33,170 nt of DNA. Origin: a virus. Lineage: Duplodnaviria > Heunggongvirae > Uroviricota > Caudoviricetes. The notes beneath the pieces were generated by a model. The model made no database searches. It saw only the letters and a program-made list of their open reading frames with translations, and was not told the DNA's origin. This document shows, piece by piece, positions 4,832 through 25,535 of this stretch; the first letter of the stretch is position 1, and the number at the start of each line of letters is the position of its first letter. The translations under genes were made by a program, and so were the position numbers. The stretch lies in the IMG/VR virus record IMGVR_UViG_2541047926_000010; one strand, 5' to 3'.

Positions 4832-6032
4832 CGATAATCTCCAGCTCTTTATTTACTTTGGCGCGACGCTTACGTGATTTGCGTTTTTTCGGATAAGCAT
4901 CCGGTATCCATATTCCATCCTCTTTGAGCCGCAGGGTGGTAATGGTGTTGTCTGGACGACCACCTGAAAACTCTCTTCCCATGAGGAAGTAAATGTCATC
5001 AATGCCATGTGGCTCGCTTCGGACACGAATACGCTGGCCCGGTTGCCATAACTGACCGTTCTCCATGCGATGGCCTTTAACAATTACTGTCAGATCAAAC
5101 CCGTTCAGACGGGCGTCAGCCATGGCCTTTCTCGCGCGATAATCAACCTGCGCCTGATTATCAGCATCACCAGCAACCATAATCTGCGGACGATAGAAAG
5201 GTACGGTACTGTCGCGAACGGTACTACGTAAGCCATGAAAGCCATTCTCTGCAGAGCCGGTGCTGTCATAAATTGCGTCGGCATCATCATCGTCTTCAGC
5301 CTCAGCGCTCTGATCATCAACGTCAATAACTTCCAGTCTTCCTGACTTTTTCCCCTGGCCGTGTCCCTGTGCCAGCATTGTCAGTTCAGAGAACGCACCG
5401 GTAATGGATGACCGGTCACTGAGATCGAGGACATTATTTCCCCGACCGTCACGATTCAGAACAAGCGTGGCTACAGGGTCTTTTGTGTAATCCGGCCCTC
5501 CAATTACCAGCGTGCCATCTGGCTCAAACCATGGCCATAACCCGCGTGCAGCAGCTGCACGCTCAAGGGTATCCCACGCACGTTCTCCGGGCTCCACGCT
5601 GACCTTGTCATTACGCAGGGATGACTCAGCCTCGATGCGGATGTTCGTTATCCCCAGCGGTCTGACAACCTGGGCGATCACCTCTTCAAGACTGAGCTGG
5701 CGGGAGGTAAAAACGGGTGAAGCGCAGTCAACAAGCACGGCTGCACCATCGCGACCGGAAAGAGATAAAGAAACCTGCTGACGGGATACCCGGCGCTGAA
5801 CCACATCCACCCGACCGGACATGACAACATCATTACCCACCCTGACCAGCACCGGCACACCACGTTTAATGGCCGGAGGGAAAATACCATCAGGCAGCCC
5901 AAGCGTTACGCTCCATGCATCGGAGGGGATCAGAAAATCGGAGTCAATCTGATAGCGGCTCCATGCACTATGGATTTTGCCATCAATAACCAGGCTCACT
6001 GTATTCTGCGAATCTTTATCTTGAGTAGGCAT
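4815..6032 (-). CDS. Baseplate hub protein (P2 gpD / Mu gp44-like)
   Basis: 405 aa; synteny downstream of the DNA circulation protein; gpD-like features. Confidence 0.75.
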   Translation of the reverse strand: MPTQDKDSQNTVSLVIDGKIHSAWSRYQIDSDFLIPSDAWSVTLGLPDGIFPPAIKRGVPVLVRVGNDVVMSGRVDVVQRRVSRQQVSLSLSGRDGAAVLVDCASPVFTSRQLSLEEVIAQVVRPLGITNIRIEAESSLRNDKVSVEPGERAWDTLERAAAARGLWPWFEPDGTLVIGGPDYTKDPVATLVLNRDGRGNNVLDLSDRSSITGAFSELTMLAQGHGQGKKSGRLEVIDVDDQSAEAEDDDDADAIYDSTGSAENGFHGLRSTVRDSTVPFYRPQIMVAGDADNQAQVDYRARKAMADARLNGFDLTVIVKGHRMENGQLWQPGQRIRVRSEPHGIDDIYFLMGREFSGGRPDNTITTLRLKEDGIWIPDAYPKKRKSRKRRAKVNKELEIIDVEQN

Positions 6033-22078: not shown

Positions 22079-22363
22079 TCACAACTCCAGTTTTGCGCGA
22101 ATGAGCAGAATCGCTACCGTGATGACACCGCCTGCAATTCCACCCGTAATCGCACCGGCAGACGCACCACGGCGAGCCGCATCGTCGCTGATGGTCGTGA
22201 GGCGAACATCAATCCGGCTCAGTTTGTCATTAATCCCGCCCAGAATGTCCGGGCTGACGGGGGCCTGCAGGCGGTCGAGCTGAGCGGAAATCCGGCTCAG
22301 CGTTTCCTGCTCGCTCTGGCTGATTGTCGCGCGGCGGGTTCTGCGCTTATGTCTGGCTTTCAT
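22079..22363 (-). CDS. Mu gp26-like small protein with C-terminal membrane anchor
   Basis: 94 aa; basic N-terminus; hydrophobic GAITGGIAGGVITVAILLI near C-terminus. Confidence 0.5.
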   Translation of the reverse strand: MKARHKRRTRRATISQSEQETLSRISAQLDRLQAPVSPDILGGINDKLSRIDVRLTTISDDAARRGASAGAITGGIAGGVITVAILLIRAKLEL

Positions 22364-22614
22364 TTGTCCTGTTTCCTGTCCAGTTTGTTATCAATGCGCT
22401 CGATAGCCGCTCGCAGCTCCCTCATCGCATCCATCATTGCGGTGTAGTTACTTTTCGCATCCTCACGGCGCTGGTATTCATCCCGGATGCGATCAACCGC
22501 CTTTTCCAGGTCGGTGATGTCTTTTTGCAGACGACGTATCCAGATGGTGCCGAAGGTTGCAGCCAGCGCCAGCGCAATCTGAAAGGCCATATCAAGAGTC
22601 ATAATGTTTTTCAC
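22360..22614 (-). CDS. Mu gp25-like small membrane protein (possible lysis regulator)
   Basis: 84 aa; N-terminal hydrophobic helix then charged coiled-coil-like region; adjacent to spanin genes. Confidence 0.45.
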   Translation of the reverse strand: MKNIMTLDMAFQIALALAATFGTIWIRRLQKDITDLEKAVDRIRDEYQRREDAKSNYTAMMDAMRELRAAIERIDNKLDRKQDK

Positions 22615-23243
22615 TTCCTGTAATACTCATTTATTGCCTGCAGCCTGCCCTCAAGGAGCTGGCACCATGCGCCGTATTCCGCTGAAAACGACACTATTCC
22701 AGTGGGGGAGAGTCCGCCACCGGTGCCTGTGGTCTGGCCGGTATGACCAGGAGCGCCGCTGGCGGTGGCTGGCAGATGCTGACCAGCGGGGAGGCTTTCG
22801 GCTCCTGGGTAGCCGAAGGCTTCCCGGAAGAGCTGCAGGCCCCCAGGGCCAATGCCGGTATAACCAGGACCATCTTTATCAAGTGCATCTTTAAGCCTCT
22901 TTTTAAGATCGCGAACAGTCTCGTCATGTGCCTTTTGCTTTTCAGCCAGCTCGCGGGTCAGCGCATCCGCTTTCTGCTGCCAGGCGTTCTGCTTATCAAG
23001 TGCAGCCTTCAGGTCAGCTGCATACTGATTCGCAGCACTGAGCCGCTCCTGATCCCACTGCCGTTCTTTTTCACTGAAACCATCAGTCAGGCTTTGCTTC
23101 TCCTTGCTGAAGGCCAGCGCCTGAGCGTCCAGCTTGTTGCCTGTGATGAAGGTGCCGAACCATATCCCGCTGCCTGTCAGAACCACGACGACGAGCAGCG
23201 GTTTCCAGCTAACCCTCAGGATTTTCTGGGCTGCTTCCCACAT
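22611..23243 (-). CDS. Inner-membrane spanin (Rz-like)
   Basis: ATG 23243-23241 (MWEAAQKILRV); N-terminal transmembrane helix LLVVVVLTGSGIWFGTFI, coiled-coil centre, Gly/Pro-rich C-terminus; track ORF extends further upstream to 23333. Confidence 0.7.
   Translation of the reverse strand: MWEAAQKILRVSWKPLLVVVVLTGSGIWFGTFITGNKLDAQALAFSKEKQSLTDGFSEKERQWDQERLSAANQYAADLKAALDKQNAWQQKADALTRELAEKQKAHDETVRDLKKRLKDALDKDGPGYTGIGPGGLQLFREAFGYPGAESLPAGQHLPATASGAPGHTGQTTGTGGGLSPTGIVSFSAEYGAWCQLLEGRLQAINEYYRK
22694..22888 (-). CDS. Outer-membrane spanin lipoprotein (Rz1-like), embedded in another frame of the i-spanin gene
   Basis: From ATG 22888 with GAGG 8 nt upstream; signal MHLIKMVLVIPALALGA then lipobox Cys; short Pro-rich mature part with a second Cys. 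Confidence 0.6.
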   Translation of the reverse strand: MHLIKMVLVIPALALGACSSSGKPSATQEPKASPLVSICQPPPAALLVIPARPQAPVADSPPLE

Positions 23244-23472
23244 CGCGCACCTCTCTGGCTCGTTTGATGGACATATGTTTTGATGCCTGGCTCTGTGCCA
23301 CCCACGCGCCCAGATAGGTGAGATACAGTTCACCGGGTGTTTCGGGACGGGTAACGGTGAGCCAGACCAGCACGAAGGAACTGACCAGGAAGGCCAGAAA
23401 AACGATGGTGTCTGACGTAGAGAGACGACCGGTGGCCGGGTTCGTCACCAGATCGCGCAGAGATATTTTCAT
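23209..23472 (-). CDS. Holin-like small membrane protein
   Basis: 87 aa; hydrophobic IVFLAFLVSSFVLVWLTV; ATG overlaps endolysin stop (ATGA); between endolysin and spanins. Confidence 0.4.
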   Translation of the reverse strand: MKISLRDLVTNPATGRLSTSDTIVFLAFLVSSFVLVWLTVTRPETPGELYLTYLGAWVAQSQASKHMSIKRAREVRDVGSSPENPEG

Positions 23473-24113
23473 AGCGCCGCCTTAGCGACATTCAGCCGCG
23501 CCACGCGGTCAGCCTGACCTTCAGCCGGAGGGTTGATACGCCGGGTTACGGCCAGAAAATTGCCTTTGTCAGCCAGCTCGTTGCAGCCATTTGCCTTCCA
23601 GTACCAGGCAGCGCTGCGGGCTGCGTTGAGATACTCCAGTAACAAATCGGGATTCGCGATGAGATCGAGGCCCAGCGCCTTACCGCAAAGGCGGTAATTA
23701 TCGCGCAGGGTAATCTGAATCAGGCCACGTCCGCGAAAGCGCCAGCCATCGCCTGATGCTTCATTACCGTTACCCCCCTGATTTGCGTAAACATAATTGG
23801 CCATTTTTTCAGGATTACGGGTATAGCGGCGGGCAAATTCCACCTCTCTCGGCTCGATAATACGATTCTTATTGAGATCGAAGTCGCTGCGGAAAATACG
23901 CGCCACGCGCTCAGCATCTGAGTAATAGAGATTTTCACTGAGCCGACTGAAACCCGCGCTCTCATGGCCGGTTTGAGCAATAAAGGCGGCAAGTCGGGCG
24001 GGTGTATTAATTTCGAATTCAGCGGTGGCTTTACTGAATGGTTCAAACCAGCGTTGCGCCATTACTGGCGAAAGGCCTGCGGCTCGCTGAAATTGTGGGA
24101 GTGTTAAAAGCAT
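23469..24113 (-). CDS. Endolysin, glycoside hydrolase family 19 (chitinase-like)
   Basis: 214 aa; GH19-like motifs FRGRGLIQITLRDNY and AAWYW; no N-terminal signal-anchor-release segment. Confidence 0.8.
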   Translation of the reverse strand: MLLTLPQFQRAAGLSPVMAQRWFEPFSKATAEFEINTPARLAAFIAQTGHESAGFSRLSENLYYSDAERVARIFRSDFDLNKNRIIEPREVEFARRYTRNPEKMANYVYANQGGNGNEASGDGWRFRGRGLIQITLRDNYRLCGKALGLDLIANPDLLLEYLNAARSAAWYWKANGCNELADKGNFLAVTRRINPPAEGQADRVARLNVAKAAL

Positions 24114-24191: not shown

Positions 24192-24671
24192 TTATTCAGT
24201 CACATCTATTATTATGGGTTCATTCGATTCTGGTTCAACATCTTTTTTCACCATGTATTCCCCCTTTGCTTTAGCTTCATCAATCAATGGGAGATATCTA
24301 TAAACAATTTTCCATACTTCTTCATCTTGTTTAAAGTCAAGATTGCGGCATGCTTGCCTCTCATTCATAGGGTCTGTTGAGTTCATTTTATCAGGATTGG
24401 AAACCAATAAAATTTTCCTCCATGCGCAAGATTTCGTTTCGTTTTTCTTTATGAAATCAAACCCGCCCGTTTTAGAACTGCCTGTCTGATATGCAAAAGC
24501 TAAATTCCTTTGTGCCTGATAGCCGTCTTTAATCGCCGCGTTAATGAAATCATTCTCAGTCTTAATCGATCCCTGTGCTTGCTCAGGAATATTTAGTTTT
24601 GTTAATTGGCCGTTGTTAGCCATGCTGTTAAAGCTAATTAAAATACAACCGGCAGCAATCAAACATTTCAT
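24192..24671 (-). CDS. Secreted protein of unknown function (AT-rich moron)
   Basis: 159 aa; Sec-type signal MKCLIAAGCILISFNSMA; AGGAG 5 nt upstream of the ATG; by eye clearly more AT-rich than the flanking phage genes. Confidence 0.65.
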   Translation of the reverse strand: MKCLIAAGCILISFNSMANNGQLTKLNIPEQAQGSIKTENDFINAAIKDGYQAQRNLAFAYQTGSSKTGGFDFIKKNETKSCAWRKILLVSNPDKMNSTDPMNERQACRNLDFKQDEEVWKIVYRYLPLIDEAKAKGEYMVKKDVEPESNEPIIIDVTE

Positions 24672-24679
24672 AACTACTC

Positions 24680-25114
24680 CTAAAAAAGTGAGTTTTGTGT
24701 TGAGGTTCCATTACTCTTTTCCGCAGCAAGAAGCTGCCAACCGAAGCGATCACTAAAACCATACTTAGGGCAAAGAAAGGTCATGGCCATAAGAGAGGAT
24801 GAACCTTGTTCACGCACTTCGGCGAACTCGGCGAGAAAGCGGCGGTTGCGTAATTCACGAAGGGCACGATCACAGCGCGGTAAATAGAGAACTTCTCCGC
24901 CGAAATTCTTGATGAGTAATTGGGTTTTATCATCGCCGATAGTATTGCGCAGGAGGGCTGCGCGGCTGGCCCCCATAGCGCGGAGGCCTTTACCTATCGG
25001 GAACGTGGTGCCACCAAAAGCAGAAAGAAGCTGCTCGGTCGCCGGGAAGCCTATCAGGTCAGCTATTTGAATCACTGCTGATGGCAGCAGCTCCGTTACC
25101 TGTTCCAGATTCAT
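24680..25114 (-). CDS. Mor/C-family transcriptional activator
   Basis: ATG 25114 (MNLEQVTELLP; track ORF begins upstream at 25150); GGEVLYLPR segment resembles the Mor/C conserved core; directly downstream of gemA. Confidence 0.75.
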   Translation of the reverse strand: MNLEQVTELLPSAVIQIADLIGFPATEQLLSAFGGTTFPIGKGLRAMGASRAALLRNTIGDDKTQLLIKNFGGEVLYLPRCDRALRELRNRRFLAEFAEVREQGSSSLMAMTFLCPKYGFSDRFGWQLLAAEKSNGTSTQNSLF

Positions 25115-25535
25115 TATTACGCTCCCGCTTTTTTCGCCGACTCGCATCAATGCTGAGAGCCTGCATGAGTTTGGTTAACTGTTCAGTCGTCAACCACTCG
25201 ATGTATTTGACGTGAAACATATGATCGCACATTTTCTCGGCATAATTCCACGGACGTTTTGCATCTGCAAGTAATGCGTTAATTTTAGAAAGAATTGACT
25301 CGCGCGTATTGGCAACCTTTGGGCGTCGACCGTGTTTTACTGAGTAGCGAGGAAAACCCTTGTCATGCATATATTCCATGACAGCCTGCAGCTCGTCGAG
25401 GGTGCATTTAGTGGATGATGTTTTACCGTTGCATAAGCGAGACAGAACACTACGGTAGGTTACCTCATCCCACCCCAGATATGCCTGACCGGCTTTAATT
25501 GCCCCTATAAGGCCTCGTTTTGCTGGCGTGGACAT
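25059..25535 (-). CDS. gemA: GemA-like protein (DUF1018-like)
   Basis: ATG 25535 with AGGAG 7 nt upstream; N-terminal MSTPAKRGLIGAIKAGQAYLGWDEVTYRSVL typical of the GemA family; followed by a Mor/C gene as in Mu. Confidence 0.75.
   Translation of the reverse strand: MSTPAKRGLIGAIKAGQAYLGWDEVTYRSVLSRLCNGKTSSTKCTLDELQAVMEYMHDKGFPRYSVKHGRRPKVANTRESILSKINALLADAKRPWNYAEKMCDHMFHVKYIEWLTTEQLTKLMQALSIDASRRKKRERNNESGTGNGAAAISSDSNS

Follow-up and report, generated by a model that had tools for sequence, protein, structure and literature searches.

The stretch of DNA studied here, 33,170 nucleotides (nt) of the IMG/VR virus record IMGVR_UViG_2541047926_000010 and referred to below as the window, is filled for the most part by a Mu-like prophage on the minus strand, and the late region of this prophage contains a spanin pair in which one gene lies inside the other. 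The outer gene (22611..23243) codes for an inner-membrane spanin (i-spanin) of 210 amino acids (aa), and the nested gene (22694..22888), 64 codons long and wholly inside the outer one, is read in the +1 frame and codes for the precursor of a small proline-rich lipoprotein, the outer-membrane spanin (o-spanin). Both reading frames and the GAGG site in front of each are on the minus strand. We read the two genes as a two-component embedded spanin pair in the late lysis cassette of a Mu-like (transposable) Enterobacteriaceae prophage, and give this reading a probability of about 0.93. Two-component spanins are a class defined by function (Summer et al. 2007; Kongari et al. 2018). The position, frame and conservation of the nested open reading frame (ORF) are far beyond what chance would produce, and the overlap shows the signature of purifying selection on a second coding frame as well as on the outer one.

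The i-spanin gene starts with MWEAAQKILRVSWKPLLVVVV, and a GAGG Shine-Dalgarno-like site, read from the sequence, lies 6 nt 5' of its ATG (23250..23253, minus strand). The start is the one annotated by PGAP in the homologue from Escherichia coli, and both M1 and the single periplasmic cysteine, C194, are invariant in 17 homologues. Over its full length the protein matches the PHROG family phrog_1403, 'Rz-like spanin', with an expectation value (E) of 1.2e-29. A transmembrane domain (TMD) is predicted at residues 16-34 (LLVVVVLTGSGIWFGTFIT; 23142..23198, minus strand), where the Kyte-Doolittle average over 19 residues reaches its maximum of 1.99, the sole such segment above 1.6, and the residues K7, R10 and K14 ahead of it suggest a topology with the N-terminus inside and the C-terminus outside. 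The layout of the protein is thus an N-terminal TMD, a long helix, a linker rich in Gly, Pro, Ser and Thr, and a C-terminal helix carrying C194. An AlphaFold2 (AF2) model analysed with DSSP gave helices at residues 13-124, 133-142 and 180-209 and disorder at 143-179, with a predicted local distance difference test score (pLDDT) of 60, which is low, and values below 50 at residues 149-188. In Pfam only a sub-threshold match to DUF2514 was obtained (19.2 bits against a cut-off of 26), and a sequence search of the PDB with the i-spanin profile returned only non-significant coiled-coil-like matches (E of at least 0.13), many of them to influenza HA2.

The o-spanin ATG lies 355 nt 3' of the i-spanin ATG, which places it in the +1 frame, and its stop codon lies 83 nt ahead of the i-spanin stop; the nested gene thereby spans nt 356-550 of the 633 of the outer gene, or 0.56-0.87 of its length (L). 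A GAGG Shine-Dalgarno-like site (22896..22899, minus strand) precedes the ATG with a 7-nt spacer, its last G being at -8, and a purine-rich AAGGA/GGAGG motif is found 10-12 nt 5' of the o-spanin start in 16 of 17 diverse loci. The 64-aa precursor is MHLIKMVLVIPALALGA-C-SSSGKPSATQEPKASPLVSICQPPPAALLVIPARPQAPVADSPPLE, in which a predicted signal peptide of 17 residues (22838..22888, minus strand), with K5 in the n-region and a hydrophobic core, is followed by the mature part, MHLIKMVLVIPALALGA being the former and CSSSGKPSATQEPKASPLVSICQPPPAALLVIPARPQAPVADSPPLE the latter. The lipobox is L-G-A-C (22835..22846, minus strand), with C18 as the predicted lipoylation site, and the N-terminus MHLIK-MVLVIPAL-ALGA-C passes a lipobox rule modelled on PROSITE PS51257. 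The residue at +2 is Ser; across the homologues this position is Ser, Ala, Gly, Val or Asn, and no Asp is found there, which counts as a signal for sorting to the outer membrane. The mature protein has 47 residues, of which 11 are Pro (23%), and a second cysteine, C39, which opens a conserved Cys and proline-rich core running to P56 (CQPPPAALLVIPARPQAP; 22721..22774, minus strand). No hydrophobic segment follows the signal peptide in the 47-aa mature chain, which sets it apart from a unimolecular spanin of the T1 gp11 type, where one protein has both a lipobox at the N-terminus and a TMD at the C-terminus. The o-spanin matches phrog_4719, another 'Rz-like spanin' family (E = 3.8e-7). It has no match in Pfam, including the lambda Rz and Rz1 families, and neither spanin protein matches an NCBIfam model.

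The lipobox pattern by itself is not significant. When every ORF of 40 aa or more that starts with ATG was screened by the PROSITE-like rule in Markov-simulated 33-kb windows, 1.7 +/- 1.4 lipobox-like ORFs were obtained per simulated window, and the real window has one spurious match, at 5890 on the minus strand, the nested ORF being the only plausible lipoprotein ORF found in it by this rule. The overlap region has a guanine-cytosine (GC) content of 65%, and two antisense frames are open there too. As neither the pattern nor the open frames in GC-rich DNA are decisive, related loci must decide. Eleven close loci were taken from IMG/VR and 28 further ones from a profile scan of GTDB genomes, the latter in Kosakonia, Citrobacter, Yersinia, Chromobacterium, Aquitalea, Vogesella, Jeongeupia, Xenophilus and a Sodalis metagenome-assembled genome (MAG); a prophage in E. 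coli FDAARGOS_1303 shares 95.8% identity with the window region itself. A fully embedded lipoprotein ORF in the +1 frame is present in 21/21 intact loci, which come from gamma- and betaproteobacteria and from the Pseudomonas phage VW-6B and in which i-spanin identity ranges from about 98% down to about 30%. Each of these 21 loci has, in that frame, the start Met, a hydrophobic signal, the lipobox Cys and a Cys plus proline-rich core, and the o-spanin stop lies 35-128 nt before the i-spanin stop. M1, L15, C18, P42, P50 and P53 of the o-spanin are invariant and C39 and P56 are each conserved at 95% (17-21 homologues), whereas the four other non-coding frames of the nested interval carry stops in 14-17 of 17 loci.

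The sequence-only reading that preceded this analysis had proposed an i-spanin gene with a second frame nested in it, coding for a short Pro-rich protein with a lipoprotein signal and a second Cys and preceded by GAGG 8 nt before its ATG. All of these elements were recovered, with the same coordinates for both genes, and the phrog_1403 match, the single N-terminal TMD and the helical prediction bear out the role given to the outer gene. It had further suggested a lipobox prediction and a look at the frame in related phages; the pattern rule finds the lipobox in the nested ORF, and the frame is kept in every intact relative, including those of VW-6B, Chromobacterium, Aquitalea, Vogesella and Yersinia, which supports the embedded spanin architecture that it had named.

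Selection on the two frames was analysed by comparing the window with loci L014 and L015, which are diverged, gap-free homologues with i-spanin identities of 69% and 56%, respectively. Four-fold degenerate sites of the i-spanin frame were identical to those of L014 in 36% of cases upstream of the overlap and in 79% inside it (Fisher p = 5.2e-4), and to those of L015 in 25% and 76% (Fisher p = 1.8e-4). Since the upstream values lie near saturation, the high identity inside the overlap is a real signal. In the overlap itself, conservation of the nested frame is at least equal to that of the outer one, amino-acid identity being 0.72 in the nested and 0.61 in the outer frame for L014, and 0.62 and 0.58 for L015. 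When the synonymous codons of the homologue's outer frame were resampled in 5000 trials, the nested-frame identity was 0.33 +/- 0.05 for L014 and 0.28 +/- 0.05 for L015, and the observed values were reached in 0/5000 trials in either case. For close relatives, L010 among them, this null comes out too high because their synonymous sites are unsaturated, and only L014 and L015 were relied on. Among 12 close sequences, the share of variable sites at position 3 of the i-spanin frame fell from 0.49 to 0.37 inside the overlap and that at position 1 rose from 0.27 to 0.385, a shift in the expected direction with a weak effect; the four-fold-site comparison of more diverged pairs took the place of this count.

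The alternative that survives best concerns the o-spanin start. An upstream ATG in the same frame (22925..22927, minus strand) would yield a 77-aa precursor with a 30-residue signal peptide, used instead of the ATG at 22888 or alongside it; this codon is kept in the close relatives L001 and L003-L013, and the longer product passes the lipobox rule too. The upstream ATG is absent, however, from L014, L015, VW-6B and nearly all distant loci, whereas the Met at 22888 is invariant and the Shine-Dalgarno-like motif is placed for it. The start at 22888 is the conserved one, because the 77-codon version is limited to close relatives, and the main o-spanin start is probably not the ATG at 22927, whose use we regard as unlikely. 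The mature lipoprotein would be identical from either start, which leaves the mechanism unchanged.

A further alternative would accept the nested gene as that of a real lipoprotein and assign it another role, such as superinfection exclusion or receptor blocking of the T5 Llp or Cor type, the 210-aa protein then having some other partner. Small phage lipoproteins with non-lysis roles exist, and the function of the nested lipoprotein is deduced here from its sequence. Its obligatory embedding in an i-spanin gene across very distant relatives nevertheless argues for co-function, the nested ORF matches spanin PHROGs and the Rz1 of phage BcepMu, no other lipoprotein ORF in the window offers itself as the o-spanin, and the mature chain, being short and Pro-rich and having one Cys, agrees with how o-spanins are described (PMC6139136), so that we hold such a role to be very improbable. 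That the nested ORF is nothing but a chance open frame with a lipobox-like string, the 210-aa gene alone being real, would agree with the GC-rich overlap, its open antisense frames, the simulated lipobox counts and the lack of annotation in RefSeq E. coli or of any match to the 64-aa protein among 5.8 billion predicted-protein clusters, yet the empty cluster search is no evidence against a gene, being expected where gene callers routinely pass over embedded genes (the original Mu genome likewise had no annotation of 23.1; PMC9239132), and the start Met, lipobox Cys and Pro-rich core in every intact locus, the interrupted control frames, the outer-frame synonymous sites frozen only inside the overlap and the PHROG and BcepMu Rz1 profile matches effectively refute it and leave it next to no credibility.

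Several points weigh against the embedded spanin pair. The spanin role of the window copy comes from sequence and not from experiment, the lipoprotein call on the o-spanin is one of pattern rules only, and from the AF2 model of the i-spanin, whose confidence is low (pLDDT 60), nothing beyond the secondary structure can be used. The prophage may also be defective, in which case the spanin genes would be intact and unused, and we know of no experimental support for the spanins of BcepMu or B3, the phages with the most similar type of pair. Finally, the Gly at -2 of LGAC is not among the residues that the narrow consensus [LVI][ASTVI][GAS]C, as given in PMC6139136, allows there, and this lipobox does not occur in the part of the text of the spanin tables of that paper that was available to us. 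In nearly all close relatives the lipobox is LAAC, against LGAC in the window. Position -2 of the o-spanin lipobox appears very tolerant, since many variants occur among the homologues: LVAC, LVGC, LPAC (in L015), LTAC, LQGC or LQAC (in Aquitalea), LAGC and LMGC. If LGAC is functional, it would be a minor addition, namely a previously uncatalogued spanin lipobox.

The closest relative from an isolated phage is the 'Rz protein' gp20 of Pseudomonas phage VW-6B (MF975721), which has 42% identity to the C-terminal two thirds of the i-spanin. Among 50,697 phage records, megablast with the lysis region found nothing similar, and tblastn with the i-spanin (E <= 1e-3) returned VW-6B only. This phage differs from the window in its Pseudomonas host and resembles it in gene order, including a DUF2644-like gene and a small downstream gene with a TMD and a coiled coil. 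Its nested +1 ORF reads MRLKTMWVLPALALAGC...C.TPPAMLLAIPPKP, and the o-spanin is unannotated there too.

More distant likenesses were found to B3 and BcepMu, whose spanins are entered as embedded families in the census by Kongari et al. 2018 (PMC6139136). In BcepMu, gp23 and gp24 are annotated as Rz and 'Rz1, out of frame, embedded proline-rich protein', and ORF27 of B3 is annotated as 'putative Rz'. Profile comparisons with hhalign matched the i-spanin to B3 ORF27 (probability 94%, E = 1e-7) and weakly to BcepMu gp23 (probability 29%), and the o-spanin to BcepMu gp24 (probability 95.7%, E = 1e-8) and less strongly to the nested ORF of B3 (probability 62%). Both phages are transposable (Mu-like), share with the window the order of endolysin, spanins, small membrane proteins, TerS and TerL, and have an i-spanin gene, about 200 codons long, with a +1 o-spanin in its distal half. 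In BcepMu the o-spanin occupies 0.51-0.94 L, compared to 0.56-0.87 L in the window, which is close to the range given for typical embedded o-spanins, from 0.4-0.5 to 0.9-1 L (PMC6139136). The o-spanin core is common to all three, with the lipobox, a ...C-P-x-P..LL..P.KP..P pattern and then GY..TSSPT in many members, and the C-terminal i-spanin motif (D/E)YGAW is common to B3 and the window. The enterobacterial o-spanins differ from the BcepMu/B3 type in the lack of the C-terminal TSSPTPP tail, the endolysin is a GH19 enzyme here and a lytic transglycosylase there, and in the window a DUF2644 protein stands between endolysin and i-spanin, with no holin gene annotated upstream. We infer from these sequence comparisons that the window pair would be a distant relative of the B3/BcepMu type, outside either BLASTCLUST group of PMC6139136. 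In B3, the nested lipoprotein ORF (L043, 5219..5527) ends 7 nt beyond the Rz stop as annotated (5520), and it has no separate coding-sequence annotation, though B3 is listed as 'embedded' in PMC6139136.

The term Rz1-like, used in the sequence-only reading, holds for architecture and putative function and does not extend to sequence, there being no Pfam match to lambda Rz or Rz1 and the relatives being of the B3/BcepMu type. As in the window, lambda, whose embedded spanin has been characterised by experiment, has its whole o-spanin gene within the i-spanin gene in the +1 frame; Rz is a membrane protein of type II in which a linker splits the helical segments, and each subunit has periplasmic Cys (PMC6139136). 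The mature o-spanins are both short, with 10 Pro in 40 aa in lambda and 11 in 47 in the window, whereas the i-spanin has 210 aa and one periplasmic Cys in the window and 153 aa and two in lambda, and no sequence homology is detectable between the two pairs. Phage Mu, whose gp23 and gp23.1 have been shown genetically to be spanins (PMC9239132), resembles the window in being transposable, in having a two-component spanin just 3' of the endolysin, and in that its o-spanin gene was originally unannotated. Its pair is overlapped rather than embedded, 23.1 reaching beyond the end of gene 23 by about 200 nt, and hhalign found no similarity to gp23 or gp23.1 (probability 1.9% and 7.6%, respectively). 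Lysis by Mu uses an endolysin of the SAR (signal-anchor-release) type together with the releasin gp25, whereas the window endolysin has no TMD.

The mechanism proposed for the pair follows the lambda paradigm as summarised in PMC6139136, and its steps of export, lipidation, sorting, complex formation, disulfides and membrane fusion are inferred by analogy with Rz/Rz1. With its N-terminal TMD the 210-aa i-spanin would be fixed in the inner membrane, and its mostly helical domain would reach into the periplasm. Translation of the 64-aa o-spanin precursor would start in the +1 frame at a ribosome site of its own, and after export and lipidation at C18 the precursor would be cut by signal peptidase II. 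The mature protein, 47 residues long, proline-rich and probably unstructured, would then be sorted by the Lol pathway to the inner leaflet of the outer membrane, a destination proposed because the residue at +2 is Ser. The C-terminal parts of the two proteins would bind to form a complex across the periplasm, to which homotypic disulfides, made by the one periplasmic Cys that each subunit has (C194 and C39), would probably lend stability. With the peptidoglycan meshwork cleared away by the GH19 endolysin, the complexes would be free to collapse and fuse inner and outer membranes, thus completing lysis.

The two frames share their bases unevenly. The bases that encode the lipobox and signal core of the o-spanin, PALALGAC (in general form PALALxAC), also encode the periplasmic i-spanin motif with the highest conservation, TGIGPGGLQL (in general form TGIGPxGLQL), and the Cys-polyproline core of the o-spanin overlaps the least conserved i-spanin stretch, about 35 residues that are predicted to be disordered. 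Tentatively, and with somewhat less than even odds in our estimate, the i-spanin linker may be largely a translational by-product of the o-spanin, and the embedded arrangement may predate the split between gamma- and betaproteobacterial transposable-phage lineages.

In the annotation of E. coli FDAARGOS_1303 by PGAP/RefSeq, the outer gene is a 'hypothetical protein' and the nested ORF is left out. The pair is an ordinary embedded two-component spanin, new only in that the o-spanin of this family is unannotated in the databases searched; the arrangement itself is well known, and the understanding of spanins is unchanged. The value lies in annotation, as recognising the pair completes the lysis cassette of a family of Mu-like prophages that is widespread in enterobacteria. 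The embedded spanins also gain a deeply diverged and well-sampled family, with 21 loci, which is a clean example of dual coding and could be used to study how two proteins are encoded on one DNA stretch.

The genes around the pair are arranged in the order Mor-family activator, a 159-codon gene, GH19 endolysin, DUF2644 protein, the spanins, two small membrane proteins, DUF1804 and TerL. The order of the cassette is also found in VW-6B and, in outline, in BcepMu and B3, and the gene order of the E. coli homologue is Mu-like, with Mor, the gp16 family, a DUF935 portal and head morphogenesis genes. The Mor-family activator is at 24680..25150 (minus strand). The first gene of the lysis cassette encodes the GH19 endolysin (23469..24113, minus strand; phrog_181, E = 1.5e-82; PF00182, E = 8.8e-13), in which a TMD or hydrophobic segment was looked for and none was found. 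It is followed by the gene for the DUF2644 membrane protein (23209..23472, minus strand; PF10841, E = 4.7e-5; phrog_1322, E = 4.5e-21), which has a strong TMD at residues 22-40 and overlaps the start of the i-spanin gene by 35 nt. Because no holin gene lies upstream of the endolysin, this protein is a holin candidate by position. A DUF2644 homologue is found at the matching place in VW-6B (L002, 2038..2322).

Between the Mor-family gene and the endolysin lies the ORF of 159 codons (24192..24671, minus strand), whose product has a signal-peptide-like N-terminus, MKCLIAAGCILISFNSMA, and has no match in Pfam or NCBIfam. It is situated in an island of low GC content (37-40%, compared to 55-58% in the flanks) and looks like a moron. 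A gene of equal size is present at the corresponding place in the E. coli FDAARGOS_1303 prophage (L001, 5527..6006).

Downstream of the spanins, an 84-aa protein (22360..22614, minus strand; phrog_462) has an N-terminal hydrophobic segment and a coiled-coil-like tail, and a 94-aa protein (22079..22363, minus strand; phrog_1103) has a C-terminal TMD. Together they hold the position of gp24 and gp25 (releasin) in Mu and of gp25 and gp26 in BcepMu. The 84-aa protein was rejected as a homologue of the Mu releasin gp25 (E = 0.19), and its match to BcepMu gp25 is weak (E = 0.026).

On the plus strand, opposite the spanin genes, are two antisense ORFs, of 96 aa (22604..22894) and 174 aa (22743..23267). 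They were rejected as genes, as the same frames have stops in 14-15 of 17 diverse loci, and are taken to be shadow ORFs of GC-rich coding DNA. In the Sodalis sp. MAG (L025, 1572..2138; L039, L040 and L041), several copies of the spanin pair are truncated or frameshifted, some of them with the i- and o-spanin frames fused or interrupted, and this is consistent with prophage decay there; among the spanin loci inspected, only these Sodalis copies are degraded.

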